DNA of 64,000 nt from a virus (Duplodnaviria; Heunggongvirae; Uroviricota; Caudoviricetes): the IMG/VR virus record IMGVR_UViG_2721755676_000001; one strand, written 5' to 3'. A model generated the notes under the pieces. It searched no databases. It saw only the letters and a program-made list of their open reading frames with translations, and was not told where the DNA came from. Of this stretch, positions 7,852 to 29,334 are shown one piece after another. The translations under genes were made by a program, and so were the position numbers. Numbering within the stretch: position 1 is the first letter of the stretch; each line of letters begins with the position of its first letter.

Positions 7852-8286
7852 ATGAAACCAGCAAAAATTGTTTTATTAGAACCGCAATTTTCCGGTTATT
7901 CGGGAATGCTGTGCGGCGTTCAGTTCGAGAACGGGGTATCCGTAGCGGAGTTGCCTTTTATCGATCAGCAGAGGATTTGTGCTTCAATGCGAGCGTCAAC
8001 AGTAGAGGGCAAAAATGTCTCTCCGTCTGCCGCATACAGTGATCGTGGTGAATTGACAGCAGACCTGATTACCGAGCCAGCAGCGCCTGACATTGTGCCA
8101 ATGAAACGTGGAACACCAGATGAACCGGCCAAACAGATCCAGGCTTTCACACGAGAAGAGCTGGAGTCAATTGCAGACAACGAAGGTATTGCCGGTCTAC
8201 GAATTATTGGTAATCAGGTTGGTGTCAAAGCGAAAGGAATTGTCGAAATGATTGACGGCATCCTGAAAGCACAAGGCGGTGAGTAA
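7852..8286 (+). CDS. hypothetical head-associated protein
   Basis: ORF with GAGGAGAG RBS; stop-start overlap with next gene. Confidence 0.5.
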   Translation: MKPAKIVLLEPQFSGYSGMLCGVQFENGVSVAELPFIDQQRICASMRASTVEGKNVSPSAAYSDRGELTADLITEPAAPDIVPMKRGTPDEPAKQIQAFTREELESIADNEGIAGLRIIGNQVGVKAKGIVEMIDGILKAQGGE

Positions 8287-9119
8287 TGGCGCAGATCGAC
8301 TCGTATCGTAGCGGTGAAGCTGTTTCCCTTTCATTTGCCTTCAACGTGCTGGATATCGAATCTGCTACCTACACAGTAAAGGACAGCACCGGGGCTATTC
8401 TCGTTGATGGCGAGCCGCTAGAAATTACCAGCGGTCAAATGTCGATCCCGGTTGTCGTGTCGGCTGAATATAACCAGCTCTCTGAGAAAGAGCGAGATCT
8501 GCGGTACGTCATTGTGAAGGCTGTTGCATCGGGTCTGACGCATGAAGAGCGGCAAATGTATGTTCTGCTGAATAGTTTTGAACTGTCGATACCAGAACAG
8601 TCGTTTGCAACTGTCGCTGATGCTCAAATGCAGGCGATCGATATGCTGAATGGGGACACTTTGCTGTCGGATGGTGAAGGCTTAATGCGCAAGCGTCTCA
8701 TTGAGGCTACCAGACGAATTAAAACTTTACCGTTCTCAATCCGCAAAATTCTACGTATCGACTTTGACCGATACGATCGCTCTCAAAATATGCTGAATGT
8801 GTATGACATTCCGTGGGGAGCAGATGGAGCGTACCGGCATGATTTAGTCGATTGGGAAAAGATGACGCAGGAGAAGTTTGAAGAGTTCCCTGACTACTTC
8901 AAAGAAGCGTTGATGCTTGCCGTTGTCAACGAAGCGTGTGAGATCGCAAATGGCAATGATGTAGCCGCAGCACGAGAGGATGGCATTTTGTCAGAGTCCA
9001 TCGGTGAAACAACCAACATGTACCGTACCGGTAAAGCTGCAAACGTGCATGTGGCTCGTAGTACCTGGCGCTTGCTGGTCAGTTACATCAACAACCGTAT
9101 GATTGTTCGCCGTGCGTAA
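8286..9119 (+). CDS. hypothetical protein (head-tail connector region)
   Basis: ORF translationally coupled to upstream gene; synteny. Confidence 0.5.
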   Translation: MAQIDSYRSGEAVSLSFAFNVLDIESATYTVKDSTGAILVDGEPLEITSGQMSIPVVVSAEYNQLSEKERDLRYVIVKAVASGLTHEERQMYVLLNSFELSIPEQSFATVADAQMQAIDMLNGDTLLSDGEGLMRKRLIEATRRIKTLPFSIRKILRIDFDRYDRSQNMLNVYDIPWGADGAYRHDLVDWEKMTQEKFEEFPDYFKEALMLAVVNEACEIANGNDVAAAREDGILSESIGETTNMYRTGKAANVHVARSTWRLLVSYINNRMIVRRA

Positions 9120-9198
9120 CGCCAGTCGCATTATTTACTTTTGGTCGAAAGGTTTTTTGGCCAGTAATGAGAGCGACCGACAACAACAGGGAGAGAGC

Positions 9199-9543
9199 AT
9201 GAATATTTCATGGCAAACAGAAATTGCGATATACCGATTTGGCGCAAAGAATGTTTACGGCGAGGCGCAATTGCAATTCGTCAGGAAGACGAATGTCGGC
9301 GTGGTTAAGTTCGAACAGAGTAATGAGAAATCGTCAGTTCGTGCTGATAGCTCTGGTAGTCGTGGTAAGGCGAGCCTGGAACTGTTTGATGCTGTGTTAG
9401 TTGTCCCTTTGGAAGCGGCTGTACAACTTGATGATGTACTGATCCTTGAAGGTCAAAAATTAAAGGTGTCCAGTGTTCATCGCCGCTGGGGGCTACGAGG
9501 AAGACCAGGGCATCTTGAAGTGGGGGCGAATATATGGGTCTGA
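9199..9543 (+). CDS. hypothetical protein (start trimmed to ATG with GGGAGAG RBS)
   Basis: Track ORF 9103-9543 overlaps previous gene; internal ATG at 9199 has a strong SD. Confidence 0.45.
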   Translation: MNISWQTEIAIYRFGAKNVYGEAQLQFVRKTNVGVVKFEQSNEKSSVRADSSGSRGKASLELFDAVLVVPLEAAVQLDDVLILEGQKLKVSSVHRRWGLRGRPGHLEVGANIWV

Positions 9544-10007
9544 AATACGATGCGCATCAGTTCAAACGTGCGGGGAATAGACTCAATAACAGCCAGAAAG
9601 CATTTAAGCGATATCTTATTCGGGACATGGAAAAGCTGGCGCGTTTGGTTGAGCGTCTCAGCCGTGCAATGGCCCCGCTGGAAACCGGATCTCTGGAGAC
9701 AGCCATCTTTGCCAGGGTGATTAAAGAAGGTTATTCAGGGCTGCGCATTGAGCTTTCTGTGTCTGGAGCAAAACCACGTCAGGGGCATCCGGGCGTAGAA
9801 GTCGGTGACTATGCTAAGTACATGGAGCTGGGTAAATACCGACTCGGTTATCTTTCTCGAATGAAGAACGTGACAAACCCACCAATTGCCGGTGTTAAAC
9901 CTCGTGTTGGGCCACACTTTCTGGAAAGAGCGGTGGAAATTAGCGAGAAGCAGTTCTCAGAAGCGATTCTTGAGGCTGCCAGAAAAGCCGGTTTTACGAG
10001 AGGTTAA
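9534..10007 (+). CDS. hypothetical protein (possible tail completion protein)
   Basis: ORF in head-tail joining region; synteny only. Confidence 0.45.
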   Translation: MGLKYDAHQFKRAGNRLNNSQKAFKRYLIRDMEKLARLVERLSRAMAPLETGSLETAIFARVIKEGYSGLRIELSVSGAKPRQGHPGVEVGDYAKYMELGKYRLGYLSRMKNVTNPPIAGVKPRVGPHFLERAVEISEKQFSEAILEAARKAGFTRG

Positions 10008-10008
10008 T

Positions 10009-10392
10009 GTGTTTATTGAAGCGTTTGCAAGTTTGATGCAGAAGGCAAAGATTGGCACGGTCGGGACTGACATTTTCTGTCACTACTTGCCTGCCAATGT
10101 GAAATCTGGCGTCCTGCTTATTAACCCAAATACCGGTATCAGCATCGATCATGAGCTACAGGGCTTTTACCACGAATCATTCACAATAATTGTGCGTGGT
10201 TCGTCAATTACTACGACGGTTGAGAAAGCCAATAAAATCATTGAGATGTTTCCAGTAGAGGAAACGGAATCTGGTGGTGTTTATTTTCGACTGGTACGAC
10301 CGATGGCGATGCCAATCATTTATCCCAAAAATGATGGAGCATTAATAGAAGCAGGCATTCCTGTTGAATTTGCTGGCTATTTATTGAATTAG
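10009..10392 (+). CDS. hypothetical protein (possible tail terminator), GTG start
   Basis: In-frame GTG at 10009 preceded by GAGAGG; longer track ORF from 9886 would overlap previous gene by 120 nt. Confidence 0.4.
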   Translation: MFIEAFASLMQKAKIGTVGTDIFCHYLPANVKSGVLLINPNTGISIDHELQGFYHESFTIIVRGSSITTTVEKANKIIEMFPVEETESGGVYFRLVRPMAMPIIYPKNDGALIEAGIPVEFAGYLLN

Positions 10393-10466
10393 GTTAATCG
10401 GTAGGTATATACTTACTGTTAGCGCAATGAATGCGTAGAATTAACGGAAAAAGGAGTTTTCCATCA

Positions 10467-11213
10467 ATGTCTAATACCCATGTAAAAAACATCAAACTTG
10501 GTGCCTGTAAGGTGTCGTTTGGTGGTGTGGATTTGGGTTACACCAAAGGTGGTGTTCAGGTTGAAATCGCAACCGAAACGCTGAAAGTGACCGTAGACCA
10601 GCTGGGCCAGACCACGATCTCCGAGCTGATCCAGGGCCGTAACATCACCATTACTGCGCCGCTGGCTGAATCCGTGTTGAAAAACATGGTCGATCTGATG
10701 CCAGGTTCCACGCTGAGTTCTGGCGAAGATATCGTAACCATCACGTCTGCGCAGGGAGTGAACCTGATCGACGTTGCGAAAGAGTTGGTGCTGACCCCGC
10801 AGGATGCGACGGATTATGTTCTGACCATCCCTAAAGCAGCAACCGCGGGTAACTTCACCATGACCTACCAGTCTGACGACGTTCGCGTGTTCTCAGTTGA
10901 GTTTTCCGCTTACCCGGACGACGCTGGCGTGTTGGGGAAAATGAGCCTCCCAAAGCCGGTTGAGAGCGTCACGCTGACCCCGTCTTCACCGACCGTAAAA
11001 GTGGGCACTAAAGTTCAATTGAGCGCAACCTTCACCCCGGCCGATGCAACCAATAAGACTGGCGTGTGGAGCTCTGATGCGACTGATAAAGCGACCGTAG
11101 ATCAGAACGGACTGGTAACTGGTAAAGCTGTCGGTTCAGCCAATATCACCTTCACAACTAATGACGGTGCCAAGAAGGCGACCAAAGCCGTCTCTGTAAC
11201 TGCCGCAAGCTAA
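10467..11213 (+). CDS. major tail protein with C-terminal Ig-like domain (lambda gpV-like architecture)
   Basis: ATG at 10467 with AAGGAG 10 nt upstream; C-terminal Big_2-like segment; position before G/GT chaperones and tape measure. Confidence 0.7.
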   Translation: MSNTHVKNIKLGACKVSFGGVDLGYTKGGVQVEIATETLKVTVDQLGQTTISELIQGRNITITAPLAESVLKNMVDLMPGSTLSSGEDIVTITSAQGVNLIDVAKELVLTPQDATDYVLTIPKAATAGNFTMTYQSDDVRVFSVEFSAYPDDAGVLGKMSLPKPVESVTLTPSSPTVKVGTKVQLSATFTPADATNKTGVWSSDATDKATVDQNGLVTGKAVGSANITFTTNDGAKKATKAVSVTAAS

Positions 11214-11228
11214 ATTGTGATAACCCAA

Positions 11229-11248
11229 GAGGCCCATGGATGGGCCTC
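11229..11248 (+). other. stem-loop GAGGCCC-ATGGAT-GGGCCTC after major tail gene (no T-run)
   Basis: Read directly. Confidence 0.3.
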
Positions 11249-11274
11249 TGTATGAGTTTAAAAGGATTTAAACC

Positions 11275-11592
11275 ATGACCAAATTACTCGATCTCGACTC
11301 CATTCTGCCGCCGAAAAAAAGCATCAAATTTGGTGGCAAAGAATATCCCATCGTTGAAATGACCGTCGGCCTCTTTGTTTCCATCAAGCAGATGGAAGGC
11401 AAAGATCTCATGAACATGACTCCTGTTGAGCAAGTGACAGCTTATGCAGATCTGGTTCGTAAGGTTATCCCTTCAGTACCTGACGAAGTTCTTGAAAAAC
11501 TGACTGTTCCGCAACTCCAGCAGATCTTCACCTTCGCTATGGAAGTGATTGATGAAGAAAACGAAAAAGCGGCTGGCGAAGGGGCAAAGTAA
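11275..11592 (+). CDS. tail assembly chaperone (lambda gpG-like)
   Basis: 105-aa acidic ORF between major tail and tape measure genes; AAGGA RBS. Confidence 0.6.
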   Translation: MTKLLDLDSILPPKKSIKFGGKEYPIVEMTVGLFVSIKQMEGKDLMNMTPVEQVTAYADLVRKVIPSVPDEVLEKLTVPQLQQIFTFAMEVIDEENEKAAGEGAK

Positions 11593-11672
11593 TTTCCCGC
11601 GATGAATCCGGGACAAGGACCGTCTCAATAGATCTCGGATTCTATTTCAGTCGTGTAGTTGCTCACTACGCC

Positions 11673-11942
11673 GTGTCGCCATTAGAGCTACTGAACGTTC
11701 CTCTCACGATGTTCTGGATGCTCAGTCGCAATATAGACCGTCTGCGTGCGGAAGAGGATGTCCGCAACTTACAAGTCGCTCGTGCGTCCCAGGCGGATGG
11801 CGAGGCTGTGAAGGCGTTCATGGAGGGTTTGCAACTCAGGATTGGAAGACCAGTCGTAACAGATAAAGTCTACGATCCAAGCCAGGATAAGGCAGACCCT
11901 GACGCCAAAGAGCAACTGATGCAAATATTTGGCAGAGGATGA
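11673..11942 (+). CDS. tail assembly chaperone frameshift extension (gpT-like; frame open from 11556)
   Basis: ORF in the -1 frame relative to the G-like gene; -1 frame is open from 11556 and overlaps the G gene's last 36 nt; ends just inside tape measure start. Confidence 0.5.
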   Translation: MSPLELLNVPLTMFWMLSRNIDRLRAEEDVRNLQVARASQADGEAVKAFMEGLQLRIGRPVVTDKVYDPSQDKADPDAKEQLMQIFGRG

Positions 11943-11949
11943 CAAGGGA

Positions 11950-14900
11950 ATGTCACAAAACGTAGAGTTTATCCTGTCGCTGGAAGACAAACAGTTTACA
12001 GCGTCAATCGATCGTGCGGGGAAACTGCTTACTCGATTTGGTGAGCAGGTAACAAAGCCTGCTCAAAAAATCCAAACCTTTGAACGCTCTTTGGGTTCGG
12101 TCGCCCGTATCATTGGCGTTCTGGAAAGCAAGCTCGATTCTACGGCAGATAAACTACAGGATGTAGCTGCCGGTTTTGAGCTTGCTTCAGATGCTACGCG
12201 TAAAATGCGTGGCAACATCACCAGCCTCAATTCTGGTCTTAAAGCCCTGATTGAGCGCGTCGATACGACAACTTCTTCAGTAGATAAACTCACCGCGTCA
12301 TTACGTAAAGTGCAATCAGAGCTAAATGATTTCTCTGATTGGGCGACCTATGCAAGCAAAAGCGCAAGCCGCTTTGGTACGGAGGTCAAAGAAGCCTCTG
12401 CGTCCGTGAGTGGCATGAATACGCGCCTTAATACCACGACGAAGCGACTCAGTAATTGGGGTGTCACAACGAGTCAGGCTGCCGAGGGACTGAAAAAGGT
12501 TCGTGAGCAGATGGACGAAGTTATCGGACGTCAGCAACTGATTAGCAAGCCGGTACGCGTTCGTACATCTGGAAGTGGCGATGGTGGCAGCGGGCGGCGT
12601 AGCGGCTCTGGCCATAGCGATAAAAGTAACGAAGGAGGTATGTTCTCTGGCCTTCGTGGCAACATTTTCCTGCTTGGCGAGATCGGAGATGCAGCCAGAA
12701 CGGTTACTGACATCATGTTTGGGTGGCAGAAGCCTATTGTTGAAGCTGCGGCCGAAATGGAACGTATGCGGGTGATGCTTCGAGGGTTGAATAAGGAGAA
12801 GTCCAACCCGGGCCAGGCTGCCGCTGATGATATGAAGTACATCGTAGACATGGCTCAAAATGCGCCGTTCGCGATGCAGGCGTTAACAGATTCCTTCGTG
12901 AAGTTTCGTTCTGCTGGCTTAGATCCAACCGATGGCTCTCTGAAGGCGCTGGTGGACTCCGTTGCTCGTTTTGGTGGTGATAGTGAGCTGTTGAAACGTG
13001 CGGCTGTGGCCGTTCAGCAGATGTCCGGTAAGGGCGTCGTGTCAATGGAAGAGCTACGTCAGCAATTAGGTGAAGCCGTTCCTAACGCGATGCAGGCAAT
13101 GGCAGACGCCGCAGGCATCACTATGGGGGAACTGACTAAAGCCGTTGCCAGCGGTACGGTTGAGGCAAAACAGGCGTTGTCTCTGATGTTTGTTGGTCTG
13201 CGTGCGGAGAATGAGAACGCAGCGAAAGACATGATGCAAACCTACACAGGTGCGCTGGCGCAACTTCAGACGTCATTCACGTTATTTGCTGATCGGGTTG
13301 GTCAGGCCGGATATCTGGATTCTCTATCGAAGGGGATGAAAGAACTGGCTTCAATCATGAATAGCGCCGAAGGGATTTCGTTTGCCAATTCTTTAGGTTC
13401 GGGGTTAACAACGGCAATCGATGGGTTGCGTCAGCTTGCTCAATGGTTAGCAAAGAACCAAGAGCTGGTAATTAATCTCGGTAAGGTCGTGGCCGCGATG
13501 GTTGCGTTCAAACTGATGCGAGCATGGATCATGGGGGTAGTTGGCGCTGGGAGCCAGATGGTTAGCACCTTTGCCACGATGGCGACCGCCATACAGACTC
13601 CATTTAACCTCGGCGCTACAGCAGTAACTCGATTCAATCGTGCGGCACGTATGGGGCTGGCTCCGATCCCCTCTCTTATTTTCGCCATCCGTGGGGCGAT
13701 TACGGGGCTTAAAGGCGCTTTTGCTGGCCTGACTGCGTTTATTGCGGCGAATCCGATAGGTTTTGTTTTCACTGCTGCAATGACCGCTGTTGCTGGCTTA
13801 ATCACGTATATGACCATGCTTCGTAGCGAAACTTCAAAGGTCGTTGACGAGATTAGGAAAATACCAGAAGCGATGACGGCGGCTAAACGTGCACAGATGG
13901 CCGAGTATAAAGCGCGTCTTGAGCAACAAATCACGCAAAAGGAACAAGAGTTAAAATCTGGCGAAAAGGTGGTTTATGGGCCGGGTATGGCCGGAACTAC
14001 AGTAAAGATTAATCATGATGAACGTAAGCGAATAGAAAATGAGCTAAATGAACTTCGTAAGAAACGCGATAAAACCAATGAAACTATTGCCAGAGGGGAT
14101 TTGGCTGTAGCCAAACGTCTGGCAAAAGAGACGGCAGAATCCCAGATAGAGAAAATACTCGAAGAGAATAGAGACTTTGCGGCAACGTTCGTGAAAGCTC
14201 GTCAGGAGGCTCTGGAGAAAATCCAGAAAATCAAGGATGACGGTTCACTTTCGGATGACGAAAAGAACAAGCTATTGGCACCGTTACGTGAAACGGTAAA
14301 CAAAAGCTATCTGGAGCCTGCGCAAAAACTGGTTGATTCACTTTCTTCTCGTAAGAATGCGACCGAGAAGCAAATCGCGACTCTTAATGATCAGCTTGAA
14401 AAAGCGAAAAAGGAAGGAAATACCGAGCAGATTCAGAAACTGCAAGGAAGTATTCGTGGCTATCAGGAGCATTTGGAAGTCGTTGCTCAGGAACTGACTC
14501 AGGCAGAGTTTAAGAGGGATAACGCGGCCAAAAGTGGTAATGGCTTAGTGTCAATCAATGGAGATGTTCTGGGGTTAGGTACAACTGATAAAGCTGCTCA
14601 GAAGGCGCTGGCGCAATATATGCGAAACCAGATGGATTCTGCGACTTATCAGCGTACTTTGCCTGACGGCACTCCGATGATGGACTTCGAAGGTAAGCCG
14701 ATTATTGGGCCTAAACAACTCAAGACGCAGCTTAATTTGCAGAAAGCATCCAGCGCCAGCTCTCTGGAGAAAATGAGCGATGAAGAGCGTGCCGCAGCCA
14801 TTGCTGCACTAACTAAAGCTCGTGAACAGGATGCAGCAGCTGCCGAGAAAGCAGCCCAACGATCAGCTAACGCCTCGCAGCGTGCGGCCAAGAAGGAACA

Positions 14901-19047: not shown

Positions 19048-22000
19048 TTGGACATGGAACAGTTCAAGAAGAAAAAATTACCGCTTCTTATTGCCGGTGC
19101 TGGTGGCAAGAAAAGTAAAAGCTCCAGCCGTACCCCGGTTGAAGCTGATGATACTGTCAATTCTCGTGCTATGGCAGCCATCCTCGACCTTCTTGGCGAG
19201 GGGGTTATCGGTGGCCTGGTAAATGGCGCAAAGTCGATCTTCATCGACGATTTACCGATCTTGAATGAAGATGGCTCTTCCAACTTCAGCGGTATTACAT
19301 GGGATTTTCGTGACGGCTCACAAGACCAGACGCCAATGGCTGGTTTTGATTTTGTTGAAACGCCTAAGTCCGTAAATATTCAGCTTAAAAAAACACACGA
19401 CGTTACGGTTTCAATCGATAACGATGAAGCTGATCGCGTTCGTGTCATCATGAAATTCCCCTCTTTACGTAGCGTTGATAAAAGCTCTGGCGATACAAAT
19501 GGCACTACGGTGAAGTACAAATTCCAGATCGCCAACGCAGACGCAACATTTTCTGATGTAGTGGCAGAAGGTGAGAAAAGCGTTGATATCACGCTAACGG
19601 CAAAGAAAACCGGCGTGTATTACCGTAGCTATGAGCTGAAACTGCCTAAGCCTGGTCGTGCATACAAGGTTAGGGTGATTCGTCTTACAGATGATAATAG
19701 TAGCCAGTACCTCTACAACGACACATGGGTTGATTCCATCGGTGAGATTGTCGACACGCCAATGAACTACCCTAACTCTGCTCTTGTTGGCTTGAAGGTC
19801 AATTCAGAGCAGTTTGGTAGCACAATGCCTTCCCGTTCGTATTTGGTGCGCGGTATCAAAATCCGAGTACCGTCAAACTACAACGAATACACCAATACTT
19901 ATGTCGGCGTATGGGACGGTACTTTTAAGCTGTTGTCTTCTTCAAACCCTGCGTGGATTCTCTACGATTTGCTTACCAATACTCGGTATGGTCTTGGGCA
20001 ATTTGTGTCGGAATCCATGATTGACCTCGGCCAGCTCTACCAGATTGGTCGATATTGTGACGAGGAGGTCGATGATGGCTTTGGGGGTAAAGAGAAACGT
20101 TTTGCAATCAATACGCAGATCACTAGCCGACAGGATGCATACCGATTAATTCAGGATATTGCCGGTGCATTCCGCGGCATGGTGTTTTGGGCTGGTGGCA
20201 TGGTTAACATCATGCAGGATAGCCCATCAGATCCGGTAATGATGTTTACCAACTCCAACGTCAAAGATGGACTGTTTACCTATAAAGGTTCTGCGCGTAA
20301 AGATCGCCCATCCGTTGCGCTCGTAACCTACAACAACAAGGAGGACGGTTATAAGCAAAATATCGAGTACGTTGAAGATCAGGACGCAATGCGCCGTTAT
20401 GGTGAGCGTAAAACAGAAGTCGTAGCATTTGGATGTACAAGCCGAGGCCAGGCTCACCGAGTTGGTTTGTGGCTTTTGTATACCGCCAGAATGGAGTCGG
20501 ATGTAATTACATTTACTGCCGGCTTAGACGCCTCATTTCTGATGCCTGGTGAAACCGTTCTGATTCAGAACAAATATCGTGCAGGTAAACGTAACTCCGG
20601 TCGAATTGTGGAGTTTACCAAAAACAGCATCACTCTCGATGCGCCTGTGTCGTTAGCTAAAAGCGGCAGCTTTATTCGGATATTGAATCAGGAAGGCAAA
20701 ATCGTTGAACGCGATGTTCTTGAAACTGGCGAAAACATAACAAAGGTTACGTTTTCAAAAGCCCTGTCGTCAGCGGAAACGCCTGTTTTGAACGGTGTCT
20801 GGACAATTACAGAACCAGATCTCGAACCTATGCGCGTTCGCATCGTTAACATCGCACAGGGGGAAACGCCGGGTAGCTTTGACATCACCGCTGTTGAGAA
20901 CAATCCGTCTAAATATGAGGCAATCGACAATGGTGCAACGCTGATCCCGCAGAATACGACGGTATTGGACCCAACTTACTCCAAGCCATCTAATCTGCAA
21001 ATCACTGAAGGGACTTATCTCTCAAGCCCGGGCAACCTGTCAGTAAAACTGACTGCAACATGGGAAGGGAAGTCTCCAGAGTATTGGATCAGTTGGCGAC
21101 GTTCTGATGAAAACAATGTATCGAACTGGCAATCGGCGCGTGTAACCGAAGAGCAATACGAAATCGTTAATGTCGCGGAGAATGGACGCTACGACTTCCA
21201 GCTGTATGCGGTTTCATTCAACGGTAAAAAAACAGAGATTATCAGTACCGTTTATCAGGTGTTGGGCACAATGACACCGCCTGATGCCCCAACGTCATTA
21301 ACGGCCGTTGGAGACTATCGTAATGTGATACTGAATTGGGTTAATCCAGATTCGGTAGACCTTGATCACATTAATGTTTACGCATCCCAGACCAACAATC
21401 TGGATACGGCGAAACTGATCGCAGAGTCTGCAAGCACCACCTTTACACATGCTGGTCTTGGGGATAGCGAAACGTGGTATTACTGGGTTCGAGCATCGAA
21501 CAAGCGAGGTATGTTAAGCCCTCCGAACTCAAACTTGGGTACAGAGGCGACAACTCGCGATGTACTGTCGTTCCTGGCTGGCAAAATTACATCTTCCGAG
21601 CTTGGTCAGGCTCTGCTTGAGGACATCAACAGCAAAGCCTCTCAAGAAGCAGTTGACGAGTTAAATGAGCATATCAACCAGAGCGTCGAATCTTTAGAGG
21701 GGGCGGTAAACGACGTTAAGGAAGATATAGCTGAATTAGATAAGCAGTTCAGCGATAACCTCGCGGATTTTGAAATAAAATTCAACGAGCGTAGCGATGC
21801 TTTGGAGAACGCACAAACCGAGCTTAAAGGTGAGGTTTCGGCAACGATTGACAAGGTCAATGAAGCGTTTGAAAAAATTGATGCTACTGATGCTGCAATT
21901 GTTGAAATCGAAAACACCGTATCTGAACACGATAAAGCTCTCGCTAATACAGTCGAGGCAATAAAGGCTGCAAGAGATGAAGCGGCGGCTCTTATTGCTA

Positions 22001-23778
22001 AGGAAAGCGAGGCTCGTGTTGAAGGCGATGCTGCAAACGCTAAACAACTGGAAGTGTTGCAGTCAACGGTAGAGGAAAGCTCCGCTGCCGTTGAAGAAAT
22101 GAAAAAGACGGTTGCAGAGGTCGATCGTGCCAGTGCAGAACTGACTACGAACATTGAGGCGTTAGCCAAAACAAATATTGACCTGGCTCTTCGTCAAGAT
22201 GAAGACCAGCACAAGCAGATGGTCAATAACGCGAAGATCGCAACAACACAGAAAACCTTTGCTGATGATATGTCTGCAATGGCCACGAAGGTTGAGGAAA
22301 TTCGCGTAGAAATTGGCGAAGACATTAAGGCCAGTATTCTGGAAGAGTCCACCGCTCGTGCCGATGGCGATGAAGCGTTGGCAAAGCGTGTCACTCAGCT
22401 GCAATCTAAGTTTGAAGGAGATATCAGCGCGGCGATTAGTACAGAGCAGGAGGCTCGTACATCTGCCGATGAAGCTCTGACGACACAAATCACTCAGCTT
22501 GAGTCGAAAGTAAGCAACGATATCGTCGCAGCTATTAAGGAAGAGCAAGAAGCCCGAGCAACGGAAGATTCGGCTCTGGCAAGCCAGATCACCCAACTTC
22601 AGGCAAAGGTTGATGATGATATTTCTGCTGCAATACGTAGTGAGCAGGAGGCCCGAGCAAGCGGGGACTCTGCGTTAGCCAAACAAATAAACCAGCTTCA
22701 GTCAAAGGTTGACGGTGATATATCCGCTGCCATCACTCAGGAGCAGGAGGCCAGAGCAAGTGCTGACCAGGCGCTCTCACGAGAAATTAACAGCCTGCGA
22801 GCACAAACCGGAACTGATATTGCCGCAGCGGTTGCTGTAGAGACAAAAGCAAGGACTGATGCCGATAGTGCATTGTCTACCCAGATTACGTCTCTTACAG
22901 CAAAAGCTAATGATCTCAAGGCGTCTCTTGCCAGAGAAACAACGGCTCGTGCAGATGGTGATACCGCTTTAACAAAAGAGGTTTCAAGTTTAAAAGCACA
23001 GACAGCGAAAGATATTAGTGCGGCCGTTGCAGTTGAAACGCAGGCTCGAACTGATGCTGACTCGGCGTTGTCGTCTCAGATCACCAAGCTGACCTCTCAA
23101 TACAAAGAGGATATTAAAGCGGCTGTAGCAACCGAAACGAAAACACGTACAGAGCAAGATGCTGCATTGGCGACTCAAATCACAAACTTAGAGTCTCAAA
23201 CGGCAGCCAACATTTCCGCGGCGGTCACAACTGAAACGACAGCGAGAACGCAGGCAGATAATGCTCTGAGTGGGCGAATCGATACTCTGAAAGCAGAGGT
23301 GAATGGAAATACCGCGACAATTCAACAGCAGGCAACAGCTATTGCTGATACCAACAAAAAAGTGTCAACCGCGTGGACGTTGAAAATGGAGACTTCAACG
23401 AGCGGAGGGCAGAAGTATGTTGCCGGTATTGCGCTTGGTATTGACACCACTGGGCTATCTCAGTTTTTGGTTCAGGCGGACAGGTTTGGTTTGGTCAACT
23501 CTGTTAACGGGAAGATCACAACGCCATTTGTTATCGAAAACAGTATCGCCTATATGAATGGAGCGTATATCAAGGATGGCACAATCACCAATGCAAAAGT
23601 AGGCGATCTGCAATCTACCAATTTTGTTAGCGGTAGATCTGGATGGCGATTCGGCAAAAATGGAACGCTTGAGATCAACGGTAATAGCGGCGGCAATGGG
23701 CGATTGGTTATAAATGGTCAGCGGATTGACGTTTATGACGATAACAACGTCTTACGAGTAAGAATTGGCCGTCTGTGA
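19048..23778 (+). CDS. central tail fibre / host specificity protein (lambda gpJ-like)
   Basis: Recognisable gpJ-type blocks (YPNSALVGLKVNSEQFGS, VPSNYN, GVWDGTFK, FGCTSRGQAHRVGLWL, KYVAGIALGIDT..LSQFLV) recalled from lambda J. Confidence 0.9.
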   Translation: MDMEQFKKKKLPLLIAGAGGKKSKSSSRTPVEADDTVNSRAMAAILDLLGEGVIGGLVNGAKSIFIDDLPILNEDGSSNFSGITWDFRDGSQDQTPMAGFDFVETPKSVNIQLKKTHDVTVSIDNDEADRVRVIMKFPSLRSVDKSSGDTNGTTVKYKFQIANADATFSDVVAEGEKSVDITLTAKKTGVYYRSYELKLPKPGRAYKVRVIRLTDDNSSQYLYNDTWVDSIGEIVDTPMNYPNSALVGLKVNSEQFGSTMPSRSYLVRGIKIRVPSNYNEYTNTYVGVWDGTFKLLSSSNPAWILYDLLTNTRYGLGQFVSESMIDLGQLYQIGRYCDEEVDDGFGGKEKRFAINTQITSRQDAYRLIQDIAGAFRGMVFWAGGMVNIMQDSPSDPVMMFTNSNVKDGLFTYKGSARKDRPSVALVTYNNKEDGYKQNIEYVEDQDAMRRYGERKTEVVAFGCTSRGQAHRVGLWLLYTARMESDVITFTAGLDASFLMPGETVLIQNKYRAGKRNSGRIVEFTKNSITLDAPVSLAKSGSFIRILNQEGKIVERDVLETGENITKVTFSKALSSAETPVLNGVWTITEPDLEPMRVRIVNIAQGETPGSFDITAVENNPSKYEAIDNGATLIPQNTTVLDPTYSKPSNLQITEGTYLSSPGNLSVKLTATWEGKSPEYWISWRRSDENNVSNWQSARVTEEQYEIVNVAENGRYDFQLYAVSFNGKKTEIISTVYQVLGTMTPPDAPTSLTAVGDYRNVILNWVNPDSVDLDHINVYASQTNNLDTAKLIAESASTTFTHAGLGDSETWYYWVRASNKRGMLSPPNSNLGTEATTRDVLSFLAGKITSSELGQALLEDINSKASQEAVDELNEHINQSVESLEGAVNDVKEDIAELDKQFSDNLADFEIKFNERSDALENAQTELKGEVSATIDKVNEAFEKIDATDAAIVEIENTVSEHDKALANTVEAIKAARDEAAALIAKESEARVEGDAANAKQLEVLQSTVEESSAAVEEMKKTVAEVDRASAELTTNIEALAKTNIDLALRQDEDQHKQMVNNAKIATTQKTFADDMSAMATKVEEIRVEIGEDIKASILEESTARADGDEALAKRVTQLQSKFEGDISAAISTEQEARTSADEALTTQITQLESKVSNDIVAAIKEEQEARATEDSALASQITQLQAKVDDDISAAIRSEQEARASGDSALAKQINQLQSKVDGDISAAITQEQEARASADQALSREINSLRAQTGTDIAAAVAVETKARTDADSALSTQITSLTAKANDLKASLARETTARADGDTALTKEVSSLKAQTAKDISAAVAVETQARTDADSALSSQITKLTSQYKEDIKAAVATETKTRTEQDAALATQITNLESQTAANISAAVTTETTARTQADNALSGRIDTLKAEVNGNTATIQQQATAIADTNKKVSTAWTLKMETSTSGGQKYVAGIALGIDTTGLSQFLVQADRFGLVNSVNGKITTPFVIENSIAYMNGAYIKDGTITNAKVGDLQSTNFVSGRSGWRFGKNGTLEINGNSGGNGRLVINGQRIDVYDDNNVLRVRIGRL
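22342..23305 (+). repeat. ~10 tandem 99-bp (33-aa) coding repeats inside the gpJ-like gene (unit ~ EQEARAsADsALstQItqLqsKvddDISAAI)
   Basis: Periodic protein sequence read from translation. Confidence 0.8.
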
Positions 23779-23807: not shown

Positions 23808-23831
23808 AATAGGTAAGTATCTACTTAATAG
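23808..23831 (+). promoter_or_regulatory. junction motif AATAGGTAAGTATCTACTTAATAG
   Basis: Read directly; upstream of side tail fibre gene. Confidence 0.35.
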
Positions 23832-23871
23832 CGGGCAAGGATAGCCCGCCAAATCAAGGAGCATATTCAAC

Positions 23872-26800
23872 ATGTGGTACAGGGAAGGTACTATCACATT
23901 TACACAGGGCAGCAATACTCTGGTTGGGGCAGGGACAGCCTGGAACGTAACAGCTAATGGTGTGTTGCCGGGGATGATCGTCATTGGCCCCGACAATAAG
24001 CTGTATGAGATCAAGCGCGTAACCAGTGATACGAACATTGTTCTCTCAGAACCTTATACCGGCGAAACTCAGTCTGAAGTTCCGTGCCGAATCATTACGA
24101 CCTATGAAGGCGACTTAACACAGTTTAGCGCGCGCTTTACTGCGCTAATGTCGCGTATGTCGGCTGATTCCAAGTCCATACGCAGTTGGTTGACTGCGCT
24201 GGATGAGGTGACAATCGAGCGTGAAGACGGTACAGAAGTGACCGTTAAGCCGCTAATGCAGATCGCCAACGAGCACAACGAAAACGTTGAGTGGTATAAA
24301 AATAACACTGACGCGATTGATGCTGCTGGCGACAAAGCTCGTGAGGCGGCGGCCAGTGCTGCCGCAGCAGCAAAAAGCGCCAATGCCGCTGGAGAAAAAG
24401 CCTCTCAAGCGTCTCAAAGTGCATCCGCTGCGGCATCCTCACAAAGTGCCGCAAGTGCGAGTGCAACTGCTGCGAAAAAATCTGAAACGAATGCTGCAGC
24501 GTCACAAAAATCTGCAGCCACTTCTGCATCCACCGCGACCACGAAGGCGTCAGAAGCTGCCACCTCAGCCCGGGATGCGGCGGCCTCAAAAGAGGCAGCG
24601 AAATCATCAGAAACGAACGCATCCTCAAGCGCCAGTAGTGCCGCTTCCTCGGCAACGGCGGCAGGAAATTCCGCGAAGGCGGCAAAAACGTCCGAGACGA
24701 ACGCCAGGTCTTCTGAAACGGCAGCGGGACAGAGCGCCTCAGCTGCGGCAGGCTCAAAAACAGCGGCTGCGTCGTCTGCCAGTGCCGCGTCAACAAGTGC
24801 CGGGCAGGCCTCAGCCAGTGCCACCGCCGCCGGAAAATCGGCAGAAAGTGCCGCATCGTCTGCTTCAACAGCCACAACGAAGGCTGGCGAAGCCACTGAA
24901 CAGGCCAGCGCAGCAGCGAGGTCTGCTTCCGCAGCGAAGACATCCGAAACGAACGCGAAAGCGTCGGAAACCAGCGCAGAATCCTCAAAAACGGCTGCCG
25001 CATCGTCCGCCAGTTCGGCGGCGTCATCGGCATCATCGGCGTCTGCTTCAAAAGATGAGGCGACCAGACAGGCGTCAGCAGCGAAGGGCAGCGCCACGAC
25101 GGCATCCACGAAAGCAACAGAGGCGGCAGGCAGTGCGACGGCAGCATCTCAGAGCAAAACTGCTGCTGAATCCGCTGCGACTCGTGCGGAAGCTGCTGCT
25201 GATCGTGCTGAAGAGATTGCCGGTGCAGTTGCGATGGAAGACGCAAGCCTTACAACTAAAGGTGTTGTGAAACTTAGCAGTGCTGTCGACAGCACCAGTG
25301 AATCGCTGGCCGCAACGCCAAAAGCAGTTAAAGCAGCCAATGACAATGCGAATAGCAGGGTGCCATCTAACCGAAAAGTTAACGGTAAAGCACTGACTGC
25401 GGATATCAAATTAACGCCGAAAGATATTGGTACTTTAAATTCAGTAACGATGTCTTTCTCTGGCGGGGCAGGGTGGTTCAAACTGGCTACGGTTACCATG
25501 CCACAAGCGAGTTCCATCGTTTACATCGCATTGATTGGTGGCGCTGGTTACAACGTCGGCTCCCCACATCAGGCAGGCATTTCAGAACTGGTTCTACGAG
25601 CAGGCAATGGAAACCCCAAAGGGATTACAGGTGCTTTGTGGAAGCGTACAGCTGTCGGATTAACGAATTTCGCCTGGATCAACACATCCGGCGATACATA
25701 TGATATTTACGTTGAGATTGGCAATTATGCGACTCGTGTAAATATCCATTGGGATTGTACTGCAAATGCGACAGTTTCTATTTATACCTCGCCAACATAT
25801 TCAGCGAGTAAGCCTTCCAGCGTTACCGATGGTGTTGTTTATACGATGTATAGCACACATCAGAAACCGACGCCGTTAGATATTGGAGCACTGCCAACAA
25901 CCGGAGGAACAGTTTCAGGTCCGTTGTCTGTTACAGGTGGATTAACTGGTTCATTGAATGGTAATGCAAGTACAGCCACGAAATTGCAGACGGCAAGATC
26001 TATCGGTGGAGTTGTTTTCGACGGTTCTGCAAATATTAACCTTCCAGGTGTAAACACTACGGGTAATCAGAACACCACTGGTAATGCTGCAACTGCTACA
26101 AAACTTCAGACTGCAAGAAAAATATCCGGTGTTCCATTTGATGGTTCTACTGATATCACTTTAACCGCTGCGCATGTTGCCGCTTTCGCAAGAAGGGCAA
26201 CAGGGTCATATGCGGATGCTGATGGTGGCGTGCCGTGGAATGCTGAATCTGGTGCTTACAATGTAACTAGAACAGGCGACAGTTATATTCTTGCCAACTT
26301 TTATACCGGTGTAGGTAGTTGCCGGACCCTGCAGATGAAGGCGCATTACAGAAATGGAGGTCTGTTCTACCGTTCCTCAAGAGATGGCTATGGTTTTGAA
26401 AGTGGTTGGGAGCAGGTTTACACGACTGGATTTATGCCTCAGCCGGCTGATATAAACGCGCCAACCGCTGCCGCTGGATGGTTAAATAGTGGTAACGGAA
26501 CGGCATTTACGACTGCTCAATTTATAACTTGGCTAAATAATCAGGGGGCATTTACAAACAAACATTGGATCGCACGGTGCTCATGGGCTTACGCCAACAA
26601 TAATTATATAGACGACACTGGTTGCGGTAGGATCGATCTATCTGGTTCCGTGATTGAGGTGTTTAGTAATAAGGCAACAAGCCACTACACTATTCGTGTT
26701 ACAACGACAACAACATCGGGTCATGGTGGTGTTAACAATGCGGAATTTATTTATGTGTACAATGGAAGTGATTATGCACCAGGCTGGCGTCGTTCTTATA

Positions 26801-28170
26801 ACACTAGAAACAAACCAACAGCTTCTGATGTAGGAGCATTATCGCTTTCTGGAGGAGCGTTAACTGGCGGATTAACTGCTGCTGGCGAGATTATTTCAAA
26901 ATCGGCGAATGGTCTGCGCATTGCCTACGGAAACTACGGATTCTTTATCCGAAACGATGGTTCAAGCACATACTTCATGTTGACCGATTCGGGTAACAGC
27001 CTGGGAACCTATAATAGTTTAAGGCCGCTTATCATTAACAATGCCAATGGTGCTGTTAGGATCGGTAATGGACTCAATGTTACTGGCGGCATCAATGGTA
27101 GTTTGAACGGTAATGCTTCAACAGCTACGAAGTTGCAAACAGCGAGAAACATCAATGGTGTTAAGTTTGATGGTTCAGGCGATATCAACATTAATACATT
27201 GGTATCTCGTGGCCGAGTTACGGCGTTAAGCGGCTCTACTCAAGGCACTGCTGGCATTCAAATGTATGAGGCGTACAACAATAGCTACCCGACCACGTAT
27301 GGCAACGTATTGCACATGAAAGGTGCGAGTGCTGCTGGTGAGGGCGAGTTGCTTATTGGCTGGAGTGGTACGAGCGGTGCACATGCGCCAGTTTTCATTC
27401 GCTCACGAAGAGATAACACAGGTGCAGCATGGTCAGCGTGGGCGCAGGTATATACCGCTAAGGATTCAATCCCTGGTGTGAATACAACTGGTAATCAGAA
27501 CACTACTGGTAATGCCGCAACCGCCACAAAATTGCAGACAGCAAGGAAAATTGCTGGTGTGGCGTTTGATGGCTCTGCCGATATAACTTTGACTGCGGCT
27601 AACCTTAATGCTTACACGAAAACAGAGGTAGCAAACCTTCTAAGCTCCTATGCAAGCAGATCATCACTGACAGGCTATAGTGGCAACCTGGATATTGTTG
27701 CTGAAACACTGGTTGTCAAATCAGGCGGTAGTGGAGGGTTTGCTATATGGGATATTGGCACAACTACTAGCGGTGCCAATATGTACATTGATCCAAACCC
27801 AGGTATCAATACAGTTTGGCGTTCAACGTCTTCAAGGCGCTATAAAAAGGATATTGAAACATTACAAGATCGATATGCTGATGAACTTTTGTCATTAAGA
27901 CCTGTTTGGTATCGTTCAATTTGTCGAGGTGACCGAAAGGATTGGGGGTATTACGGCCTTATTGCTGAAGAGGTTGGTGAGATTGCCCCGCAATATGTCC
28001 ATTGGCGTGAACCAACAAATAATGATTCTCCAGAAGATATTTCCTCAAATGGTATGGTCGCTGAAGGAGTGATGTATGAGCGTTTGGTTGTACCACTCAT
28101 TCATCATATTCAGCAATTGACCAAAAGGGTTGAGGAGCTTGAAACGAAGTTAAATTCACCTAAAGAATAA
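23872..28170 (+). CDS. side tail fibre protein (Stf-like) with C-terminal intramolecular chaperone (peptidase S74-like) domain
   Basis: Long Ala/Ser/Thr-rich segment (ASEAATSARDAAASKEAAKSSETNASSSA...) as in lambdoid Stf; repeated NTTGNQNTTGNAATATKLQTARKI modules; C-terminal SSRRYKKDIETL..GYYGLIAEEV; AAGGAG RBS. Confidence 0.85.
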   Translation: MWYREGTITFTQGSNTLVGAGTAWNVTANGVLPGMIVIGPDNKLYEIKRVTSDTNIVLSEPYTGETQSEVPCRIITTYEGDLTQFSARFTALMSRMSADSKSIRSWLTALDEVTIEREDGTEVTVKPLMQIANEHNENVEWYKNNTDAIDAAGDKAREAAASAAAAAKSANAAGEKASQASQSASAAASSQSAASASATAAKKSETNAAASQKSAATSASTATTKASEAATSARDAAASKEAAKSSETNASSSASSAASSATAAGNSAKAAKTSETNARSSETAAGQSASAAAGSKTAAASSASAASTSAGQASASATAAGKSAESAASSASTATTKAGEATEQASAAARSASAAKTSETNAKASETSAESSKTAAASSASSAASSASSASASKDEATRQASAAKGSATTASTKATEAAGSATAASQSKTAAESAATRAEAAADRAEEIAGAVAMEDASLTTKGVVKLSSAVDSTSESLAATPKAVKAANDNANSRVPSNRKVNGKALTADIKLTPKDIGTLNSVTMSFSGGAGWFKLATVTMPQASSIVYIALIGGAGYNVGSPHQAGISELVLRAGNGNPKGITGALWKRTAVGLTNFAWINTSGDTYDIYVEIGNYATRVNIHWDCTANATVSIYTSPTYSASKPSSVTDGVVYTMYSTHQKPTPLDIGALPTTGGTVSGPLSVTGGLTGSLNGNASTATKLQTARSIGGVVFDGSANINLPGVNTTGNQNTTGNAATATKLQTARKISGVPFDGSTDITLTAAHVAAFARRATGSYADADGGVPWNAESGAYNVTRTGDSYILANFYTGVGSCRTLQMKAHYRNGGLFYRSSRDGYGFESGWEQVYTTGFMPQPADINAPTAAAGWLNSGNGTAFTTAQFITWLNNQGAFTNKHWIARCSWAYANNNYIDDTGCGRIDLSGSVIEVFSNKATSHYTIRVTTTTTSGHGGVNNAEFIYVYNGSDYAPGWRRSYNTRNKPTASDVGALSLSGGALTGGLTAAGEIISKSANGLRIAYGNYGFFIRNDGSSTYFMLTDSGNSLGTYNSLRPLIINNANGAVRIGNGLNVTGGINGSLNGNASTATKLQTARNINGVKFDGSGDININTLVSRGRVTALSGSTQGTAGIQMYEAYNNSYPTTYGNVLHMKGASAAGEGELLIGWSGTSGAHAPVFIRSRRDNTGAAWSAWAQVYTAKDSIPGVNTTGNQNTTGNAATATKLQTARKIAGVAFDGSADITLTAANLNAYTKTEVANLLSSYASRSSLTGYSGNLDIVAETLVVKSGGSGGFAIWDIGTTTSGANMYIDPNPGINTVWRSTSSRRYKKDIETLQDRYADELLSLRPVWYRSICRGDRKDWGYYGLIAEEVGEIAPQYVHWREPTNNDSPEDISSNGMVAEGVMYERLVVPLIHHIQQLTKRVEELETKLNSPKE

Positions 28171-28230: not shown

Positions 28231-28485
28231 ATGAGCTATGGTGCACAGGTTTGGTCGCCATCAAGACAGGAGATGGTCAATGCGTTGGCCCCTGTTTATT
28301 ACCTCGATTATTTTACTCCCTCTGGTTCAGGAAGTAGAACATATGAGGTTGAGGCGGGATTGGGAATCGACTATTACATAATGGACGTAACCAATGGAAA
28401 GTACACAAGTCTTACGGTTTCTGGAAATACCATTTCGTGGTCTGGAGCTAGTGGTAATTTAAACATATTGGTTTTTCAAAAATAA
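28231..28485 (+). CDS. hypothetical protein (AT-rich cargo gene)
   Basis: ORF with AAGGA RBS; visibly lower GC than flanking structural genes. Confidence 0.5.
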   Translation: MSYGAQVWSPSRQEMVNALAPVYYLDYFTPSGSGSRTYEVEAGLGIDYYIMDVTNGKYTSLTVSGNTISWSGASGNLNILVFQK

Positions 28486-29093
28486 TGTACGGAAGCAAGA
28501 TATATCGATCTGACGGGAAGGTCTGGATGTCTCCTTCTTTGTCTCCTATCGTTTTTCAGAGAAAGCAGGTTGTTTCTTTGTCCGGCGGGACAGAGTTTAA
28601 CACCAAAATATCTCCAGATCGTTCACCGATTATTTTTGTTGCCTATTCGAAAGCTGTTTCATTAATAGCCAACAGAATAGTGCGTAACAACCAGGTGATT
28701 TACAGTTTCGGAGGTCGGGGTAGCGACTCTAGTGCCACGATATACGTATTTTCGAAAGGTATAGCCAAAAAAGAAACTTGGGGCATGAGTTTTTTCAATG
28801 CACAAGGGGGGGAAATCTATAATACGGCAAATATCCCACTTTCATTTACCTTTCTTAATAATACGGAGTGGAACAGCTCTGGAGGGCATGTTTTTGATTA
28901 CCCTCCAGCGATAATCCCAACATATGCGAATGTGTTCGCTGTTCCAGTACCGGGCGGAGCCATGACAATGGTTTATGGATATGCGGCGTATGGAAATACT
29001 GTTAGCTCGATATTCGTAAACCAACTTAATGGCGGCCATAGTTTTAGCGTAAATGGCAGAGTACCGGTAATAAATAGAAATCTGTATAACTGA
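28485..29093 (+). CDS. hypothetical protein (AT-rich cargo gene)
   Basis: ORF start overlaps upstream stop (TAATG). Confidence 0.5.
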   Translation: MYGSKIYRSDGKVWMSPSLSPIVFQRKQVVSLSGGTEFNTKISPDRSPIIFVAYSKAVSLIANRIVRNNQVIYSFGGRGSDSSATIYVFSKGIAKKETWGMSFFNAQGGEIYNTANIPLSFTFLNNTEWNSSGGHVFDYPPAIIPTYANVFAVPVPGGAMTMVYGYAAYGNTVSSIFVNQLNGGHSFSVNGRVPVINRNLYN

Positions 29094-29100
29094 TGAGTAA

Positions 29101-29334
29101 ATGATGAAAAGATTATTTCTAACAATAGCTGTTGTTCTCTCTCTTACTGGCTGCCAGAAATTGCCGACACCTATATGTTATGGTGAAGCTATCATTGGTG
29201 GACAGGAGACAGTCATACCCATATATGCTGTTAAAAAAGTGAACGACTATACCTTATACAAAGCGGGTAGCATCTATAACTGGCGATGGGTTGGAGTAGG
29301 TGCTTTCTCATCAATCGGTTGCAATGCTGAATGA
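29101..29334 (+). CDS. small lipoprotein (candidate Cor/Llp-like superinfection-exclusion protein)
   Basis: Signal peptide with lipobox LSLTGC; 77 aa; located directly after tail fibre genes. Confidence 0.5.
   Translation: MMKRLFLTIAVVLSLTGCQKLPTPICYGEAIIGGQETVIPIYAVKKVNDYTLYKAGSIYNWRWVGVGAFSSIGCNAE

Follow-up and report, generated by a model that had tools for sequence, protein, structure and literature searches.

Among the systems closest to the gene described here, engineered chimeras of the lambda side tail fibre Stf with K1F are functional (PMC11338833), and the K1F endosialidase is known to have a chaperone domain at its C-terminal end (PMC8326128), so that the fusion of a Stf-type fibre to a chaperone end of the S74 type is an arrangement that can work. 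The catalytic serine/lysine pairs of such domains have been proven for endoNF (S911/K916) and MyRF (S587/K592) (PMC8326128). In small siphoviruses, a locus for the receptor-binding protein and its cognate exclusion protein is situated downstream of gpJ (PMC8594841). Our subject is a gene at positions 23872-28170 of a 64,000-nucleotide stretch of DNA from a tailed virus (Caudoviricetes; IMG/VR record IMGVR_UViG_2721755676_000001), the whole of which is referred to below as the window. It belongs to an SSU5-like Escherichia coli phage-plasmid, for which it encodes the side tail fibre, and its product is very probably a homotrimeric, mosaic fibre with a self-cleaving S74 folding domain at its C-terminus.

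The open reading frame is single and uninterrupted over 1432 codons (calculated mass 147.4 kDa), and its ATG at 23872 is preceded, at a distance of 10 nucleotides, by the Shine-Dalgarno sequence AAGGAG at 23856-23861. A J-like tail-tip gene (19048-23778, 1576 residues) ends 93 nucleotides before it, i.e., the fibre gene lies downstream of J as a Stf gene should, and the same order of J-like gene and fibre is found in pECOH89, Cyrano and SSU5; on the 3' side there are three small genes and then holin and endolysin. Over its full length the gene has a DNA identity of 96-98% to the “tail fiber protein” genes of at least 18 non-mobilizable plasmids of ~110 kb from E. coli and Shigella, including pECOH89, a single match spans at least 80% of it in 50 plasmid records, and the 5' part of it has matches in the phages CMS-2020a, Cyrano and SSU5. 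It was from these plasmid matches, together with the 5' matches to the three phages, that the window could be placed as an SSU5-like phage-plasmid. The fibre matched 46 PHROG families, mostly of tail fibres; a scan of it with NCBIfam produced no matching model, and in the literature on the SSU5 group nothing specific to the fibre protein of 23872-28170 was found. Its features, in which R1 to R4 are the copies of a repeat unit discussed below, are as follows.

23872-28170, plus strand: the whole side tail fibre gene (intact reading frame, AAGGAG, full-length plasmid matches)
23872-24321, plus strand: N-terminal domain of SSU5 type, residues 1-150 (similarity to SSU5-group fibres)
24322-25233, plus strand: Ala/Ser/Thr-rich shaft, residues 151-454 (heptad periodicity, identity to lambda and lambdoid stf)
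Within 24245-25270: three artefactual overlapping open reading frames, at 24245-25246 (minus strand), 24287-25270 (plus strand) and 24414-25109 (minus strand) (codon statistics, stops in relatives)
25246-25368, plus strand: Phage_fiber_2 motif, residues 459-499 (Pfam PF03406, E = 2e-19)
25369-25923, plus strand: central module, residues 500-684 (part of the 85-95% block in common with lambdoid stf genes)
25921-26043, plus strand: R1, residues 684-724 (contains GSLNGNASTATKLQTARSIGGVVFDGSANINL)
26038-26193, plus strand: R2, residues 723-774, the long form with PGVNTTGNQNTTGNAATATKLQTARKISGVPFDGSTDITLTAA (in tandem with R1)
26212-26451, plus strand: gp37_C-like / Mu S'-like module, residues 781-860 (Pfam PF12604, E = 3.7e-6)
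26452-26826, plus strand: Mu S'-like module, residues 861-985 (PDB 8ju3)
26737-27069, plus strand: T4 gp34-type trimerisation domain, residues 956-1066 (Pfam PF21446, E = 2.7e-30)
27070-27192, plus strand: R3, residues 1067-1107, short form
27193-27465, plus strand: module of residues 1108-1198 (similar to the gp37_C-like module at its C-terminal end)
27466-27621, plus strand: R4, residues 1199-1250, likewise in the long form (R2 and R4 are 79% identical in amino acids)
27622-27828, plus strand: distal tip, residues 1251-1319 (precedes the predicted cleavage site)
27829-28167, plus strand: Peptidase_S74 intramolecular chaperone, residues 1320-1432, 13.3 kDa (PF13884, invariant residues, fold)

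The folding domain at the C-terminus was recognised by PF13884 at 27.0 bits with the whole protein as query and at 30.8 bits with the segment alone, the cut-off being 22. In 28 homologues, with identities down to 26%, the residues S1320, S1321, K1325, E1329 and G1362 and the motifs PVWYR (1344-1348) and IAEEV (1364-1368) are invariant, and the spacing of S1320 and K1325, S-x4-K, is that of endoNF and MyRF. An AlphaFold monomer model of the last 179 residues had predicted local distance difference test (pLDDT) values of 81-95 over the S74 domain, and its best Foldseek match was the autocleavage domain of MyRF (7dc3; E = 8e-6, probability 1.0), alongside the chaperones of endoNF (3gw6, probability 0.97) and GA-1 (3gud, probability 0.98), both with E about 0.02-0.04. 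A PDB sequence search with the C-terminal 229 residues gave a weak match to 8hqz only (E = 0.014). By analogy with the proven pairs, cleavage would take place on the N-terminal side of S1320, the catalytic pair being S1320/K1325, and would yield a fragment of 13.3 kDa and a mature chain of 134 kDa. It could be proposed that a domain of this kind no longer cleaves and has become a permanent trimerisation or cap domain, for which one may cite the modest Pfam score of 27-31 bits, the weaker matches to the phage structures 3gw6 and 3gud than to MyRF, and the fact that cleavage is itself a prediction; however, the score is above the curated Pfam cut-off, the Ser/Lys pair and the signature motifs have been kept in all 28 homologues, and the spacing of the pair equals that of two pairs whose activity is proven, and we consider the loss of cleavage improbable. 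The preferred reading is that of a self-cleaving chaperone, and on its Pfam score, invariant residues, spacing and fold the S74 domain is what an earlier note on this DNA, made from the sequence alone, had said it was.

Such an end differs from the His-rich C-terminus with a separate Tfa, and no Tfa-like gene was found 3' of the fibre gene, where the genes are phrog_557, phrog_425 and Cor; nor was an enzymatic depolymerase domain detected in the fibre. The distal tip is conserved together with the chaperone domain in homologues, among them stand-alone proteins of ~230 residues in coliphages of ~50 kb, which means that the distal end can be a separate small gene elsewhere. The stand-alone proteins with tip and S74 domain (P0021-P0036), e.g., those of orkinos, BEBK14, PeterMerian and Jahat_MG145, have been annotated either as tail fibres or as lateral tail fibre chaperones.

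The N-terminal end of the fibre is of a different ancestry. The fibre gene of SSU5 has 77% nucleotide identity to nucleotides 1-513 of the gene, the N-terminal end is 97-99% identical at the amino-acid level in all 17 related loci that hold it, irrespective of their 3' ends, and a search of residues 1-200 for a lambda Stf match found none; presumably, these ~150 residues attach the fibre to the tail tip. Residues 151-455 are 40% Ala, 24% Ser and 10% Thr, the Ala residues show periodicities of 3.5 and 7.0 residues (power 7.9; 95th percentile of shuffled sequence, 2.1), and the autocorrelation is 0.34-0.46 at lags of 7, 14, 21 and 28. The shaft is an uninterrupted and strict heptad repeat, not formless low complexity, and it presumably forms a trimeric coiled-coil rod. 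Its relationship to Stf is close, as lambda orf-401 has 82.9% identity by blastn to nucleotides 522-900 of the gene (379 nucleotides) and 73% identity by tblastn over 148 residues of the shaft, and nucleotides 522-2552, which encode the shaft and the next ~400 residues, are 85-95% identical to the stf genes of many lambdoid phages. The Stf-type, Ala/Ser/Thr-rich shaft of the earlier note is thereby borne out, similarity to S74 was evident in the Pfam scan and similarity to Stf in the nucleotide comparisons, and the evidence supports its identification of the gene as essentially correct.

The composition of the shaft also bears on how the gene has been annotated. Second codon positions of the real frame are, in this region, 67% C and 1% T, so that stops hardly occur in the other frames, and the three open reading frames that overlap the shaft do all exist. 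That they are artefacts, as had been surmised, is evident from this codon bias and from relatives of 88% identity, in comparison with which 151 of the 219 substitutions are third-position changes in the real frame; in relatives the alternative frames also gain 1-8 stops. In the reference annotation of lambda, the minus-strand orf206b is situated wholly within orf-401, and we take it to be, in all likelihood, the same sort of artefact. A further question was raised by the RefSeq coding sequence of pECOH89, which covers only the 3' 2937 nucleotides, from M455 (window position 25234), as this start and those of phrog_6722, phrog_21552 and phrog_36614, which begin at residues 453-455, would fit a locus that encodes a short N-terminal protein and, separately, a fibre from M455. 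Against this stand the lack of any stop in the 1432 codons of the window or of pECOH89, where the frame is likewise intact (8001-12299 of its locus, L001), the substitutions 5' of M455, which keep the third-position pattern of the long frame, and the Shine-Dalgarno sequences, since no clear one was found before M455 and ATG 23872 has AAGGAG. In addition, a fibre that started at M455 would miss its group-specific N-terminal domain. Two products are therefore extremely improbable, and the simplest account of the truncated M455 calls is that the Ala-rich shaft, with the reading frames that compete there, probably misled the gene finders. With its frame intact and no clear ribosome-binding site before M455, the internal start was rejected as an annotation artefact, and what follows refers to one long fibre.

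Distal to the shaft, the fibre is a mosaic of curated and well-known tail-fibre modules. The region of the Phage_fiber_2 motif aligns to Mu S residues 105-156, and junctions with relatives lie within the motif at gene nucleotides 1387-1485. The central module, residues 500-684, had no match in a Pfam scan and so holds no curated domain, and it is replaced by unrelated sequence in two of the related loci (L008 and L019), the replacement being confined to the interval between Phage_fiber_2 and R1/R2. In the PDB, the fibre as a whole matched Mu S' (8ju3, E = 7e-65) and Mu S (5yvq, E = 2e-38). Residues 324-421 of 8ju3 align to fibre residues 771-868, residues 201-326 align to 860-986 (125 bits), and the two Mu S'-homologous modules (window 26182-26829) stand in the opposite order to that of Mu S'. 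Cyrano-type alleles have a third order, with a Mu S'-like module at the extreme C-terminus. The gp34-type domain is a member of its family on the strength of PDB matches to 4uxe, 5nxf and 5nxh (E 8e-20 to about 1e-19) and also to 5yvq. Residues 831-851 and 1174-1195 are 55% identical by blastp (E = 1e-4), and the module of residues 1108-1198, to which the latter belong, is also present directly 3' of a hybrid repeat in locus L015.

The unit that recurs between these modules is ~40 residues long, GNAxTATKLQTARxIxGVxFDGSxxI, and is present in four copies, R1 to R4, that were found by BLAST of segment versus segment; self-BLASTP of the whole distal region had returned the full-length self-match only. 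Of 41 columns, 22 are invariant among the four copies, and the E-values of pairwise blastp between the segments, 1e-14 to 3e-30, show a similarity beyond chance. Two types can be told apart, that of R1 and R3 (...TGG-x-x-GSLNGNASTATKLQTAR...) and that of R2 and R4 (PGVNTTGNQNTTGNAATATKLQTARKI...DITLTAA). The earlier note had spoken of three copies, about 80 percent identical in DNA, each with the 22-residue string NTTGNQNTTGNAATATKLQTAR. Repeats are indeed present in all three DNA regions that it named, but the first of these holds two in tandem, which makes four, and the exact string occurs solely in R2 and R4. The identity was overstated, since the 87-nucleotide cores are 63-79% identical, with 79% reached by the R2/R4 pair only, and the 156-nucleotide long module of that pair is 73% identical.

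The longest exact run shared between any two copies is 8-14 nucleotides, and between R2 and R4, 14 of the 18 differences in the core and 28 of the 42 in the long module lie at third codon positions. With differences mostly on third positions, the copies must be old and held by protein-level selection. We regard them as conserved joints in the structure of the fibre and not as duplications of recent date. A profile built from the four copies matched, at E <= 0.001, 14,415 representative proteins, in which the unit can occur as many as 21 times. Pfam searches with the repeat segments alone (E <= 10) gave no tail-fibre family, and a PDB sequence search with R1-R2 gave chance matches only; one distant multi-copy relative of the unit matched PF18338 (BppL_N) instead. 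A bolder proposal, to which we give little credence, is that the unit is a dedicated tail-fibre joint that has yet to be curated, and that codon drift among its copies within the gene is selected, not merely old, and suppresses self-deletion; as the same copy is near-identical between alleles, exchange would still be possible.

The evidence for exchange came from 80 related loci (L001-L080), in which junctions were placed at the ends of stretches of at least 85% identity. Of the 26 junction clusters, 11 are in the Phage_fiber_2 motif or in R units, intervals that make up 16.6% of the gene (binomial p = 0.0017, a value that is indicative only, as BLAST alignments tend to end where conserved segments do and the loci are not independent of one another). 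Similarity to 14 relatives stops at gene nucleotide 2291, inside R2, and it is up to this nucleotide, the end of the R2 core, that Cyrano-type alleles are 97% identical before they diverge. In R3 there are junctions at nucleotides 3250 and 3272, with weaker matches of 74-77% that end at 3323, and in a search of phage records the single match of CMS-2020a ends at 3272, as does that of L014; in R4 the clusters are at 3586, 3713 and 3781. The hybrid repeat of L015 has a first half of the R2/R4 type, and a second half that is, like the module next to it, of the R3 type. Among the relatives the motif is present in 1-5 copies, 1 in SSU5 and 5 in Cyrano. There are at least four alternative 3' ends at this locus, each with its own folding solution: the S74 end of the window fibre; a second S74 end, unlike the first, with a Gly-rich open reading frame of 279 residues after it; a lambda-type His-rich end with a separate Tfa-like gene (L011); and a Cyrano-type end that has neither S74 nor Tfa. 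These comparisons support an exchange of modules between alleles that would have been mediated by the motifs.

The direct repeats had also been put forward in the earlier note as substrates for recombinational shuffling, and of this it is the exchange between alleles, with its clustered junctions and the L015 hybrid, that stands. Had the repeats arisen by recent internal duplication, they could be live substrates for homologous recombination within the gene, with deletions, duplications and shuffling as the outcome, and the four direct copies in one gene, the 1-5 copies among relatives and the one hybrid copy are all compatible with this. Efficient RecA- or Red-dependent exchange takes roughly 20-30 bp of perfect identity, however, and the copies, 63-79% identical in DNA and with at most 14 identical bases in a row, are below that and are poor substrates for recombination within the gene. 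Furthermore, their third-position differences (14/18 and 28/42) are those of old, protein-constrained copies, and a simple deletion from one repeat to another in the window allele would account for none of the 80 related loci. Intragenic recombination is thus unlikely, and exchange between alleles at the conserved joints is the reading that we carry forward.

In the model that we favour, the SSU5-specific N-terminal ~150 residues would dock the fibre on the tail tip, and the ~300 residues after them, an Ala-core heptad repeat with its origin in a lambda-type Stf, would form a coiled-coil rod. The distal two thirds would be a chain of small modules of the Mu S/S', T4 gp37 and T4 gp34 types with the four ~40-residue units between them. 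The last 113 residues, the S74 chaperone, would trimerise first and template the folding of the fibre from its C-terminus, and would then cut themselves off before S1320 by means of S1320/K1325, to leave a mature fibre of 1319 residues whose new C-terminal tip, residues 1251-1319, may face the host surface; a separate tail fibre assembly gene would be unnecessary, and there is none. As the repeat joints are present in thousands of other fibres, they would be sites of module exchange between alleles and between phages. The trimer state, the N-terminal docking, the cleavage and the assignment of a receptor-binding module are parts of the model that we infer.

Several points weigh against the model. 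The RefSeq gene model of pECOH89, as noted, begins at M455, and the bias of BLAST endpoints tempers the clustering of junctions. The repeat unit had no counterpart among Pfam families or solved structures, so that “structural joint” is our interpretation of it; the tip was modelled poorly, with a pLDDT of 44-62, and the receptor-binding part is therefore not attributable to a module; and autoproteolysis is predicted from the sequence and a monomer model.

The neighbourhood of the fibre gene was considered as well, as its 3' side holds a small cassette.

28231-28485: gene for a protein of 84 residues, phrog_557
28485-29093: gene for a protein of 202 residues, phrog_425
29101-29334: gene for a Cor exclusion lipoprotein of 77 residues (NF047972, E = 8.7e-23)

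The trio orf84-orf202-cor is also found in SSU5 (SSU5_023-025), and the 202-residue protein has homologues of 24-32% identity in T1-like coliphages of ~50 kb. By the NCBIfam name of the matched model, Cor is the exclusion lipoprotein of lambda; as Cor acts on FhuA, the terminal receptor might be FhuA. Among the E. coli SSU5-like loci, all 16 that have the window-type S74 tip have the cassette as well (the contig of L023 ends before cor), and of those with another 3' end, the 11 that extend to the holin gene are all without it. In SSU5 itself the cassette accompanies another type of fibre end and a separate “tail fiber adhesin” gene. For this reason a functional tie between the S74 tip and the Cor cassette was rejected, and their linkage is probably historical, not functional. 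Co-variation of the fibre tip with J was likewise rejected, as J is near-constant, with 97-99% identity across most fibre types and 94.8% in Cyrano.

Two other features were seen on the 5' side. The C-terminal half of the J-like protein has an Ala/Glu/Gln-rich periodic region of ~400 residues with many repeats (...DISAAI..EQEAR...ALA.QITQLQSKV...), and so long a periodic region is unusual among proteins of the lambda J type. Between the J-like gene and the ribosome-binding site of the fibre gene there is a GC-rich inverted repeat, GCGGGC-N7-GCCCGC, at 23831-23849, which has no T run after it and was not called by a terminator scan.

That the fibre is a standard tail fibre was already known, in so far as a gene of 96-98% identity is annotated in many public records, and the general knowledge of tail fibres is unchanged by our result, whose practical value is limited. 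What the analysis provides is a map of the domains and a prediction of the cleavage site in the fibre of widespread E. coli phage-plasmids, some of which have resistance genes, a flag on the truncation of the fibre gene in at least one RefSeq record, and a map of natural junctions, i.e., of probable swap points for the engineering of fibre modules.

Similarities and differences to lambda are both apparent. As with lambda Stf (orf-401/orf-314), the fibre gene is 3' of J, although directly after it here and with lom in between in lambda, and both fibres have an Ala/Ser/Thr heptad shaft and the Phage_fiber_2 motif. Unlike lambda Stf, the window fibre has ~175 N-terminal residues of SSU5 type with no lambda match, and it ends in S74, whereas lambda has the His-rich C-terminus and a separate Tfa. 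The fibre and its downstream trio resemble the arrangement of receptor-binding protein and exclusion protein in the small siphoviruses. With the S74 chaperones of K1F endoNF, the T5 L-shaped tail fibre, GA-1 gp12 and MyRF the window fibre has in common the C-terminal position behind a trimeric fibre, the Ser-x4-Lys pair, the signature motifs and the fold (7dc3, 3gw6, 3gud). It differs from those systems in that just about 65 residues separate its last repeat from the predicted cleavage site, in that no depolymerase domain was detected in it, and in that its cleavage is a prediction.

The internal modules have clear sequence homology to Mu S/S' (5yvq, 8ju3) and to T4 gp34 and gp37, although the two modules that are in reverse order to Mu S' are internal here, not distal, and the window, unlike Mu, is without a chaperone gene of the U/U' type. 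For the distal tail fibres of the T-even phages, Tetart, Desplats and Krisch reportedly found in 1998 (J Mol Biol 282:543, as cited in PMC10879196) that adhesin modules are exchanged by recombination between conserved motifs. As in those fibres, short conserved motifs flank the variable modules of the window fibre, and the similarity between alleles starts and stops inside the motifs; the motif itself is a different one, the window comes from a phage-plasmid that is temperate and of siphovirus type, and exchange is deduced from comparison instead of crosses. With these differences kept in mind, the fibre locus presents the mosaicism, with conserved motifs at its seams, that is classical for tail fibres.

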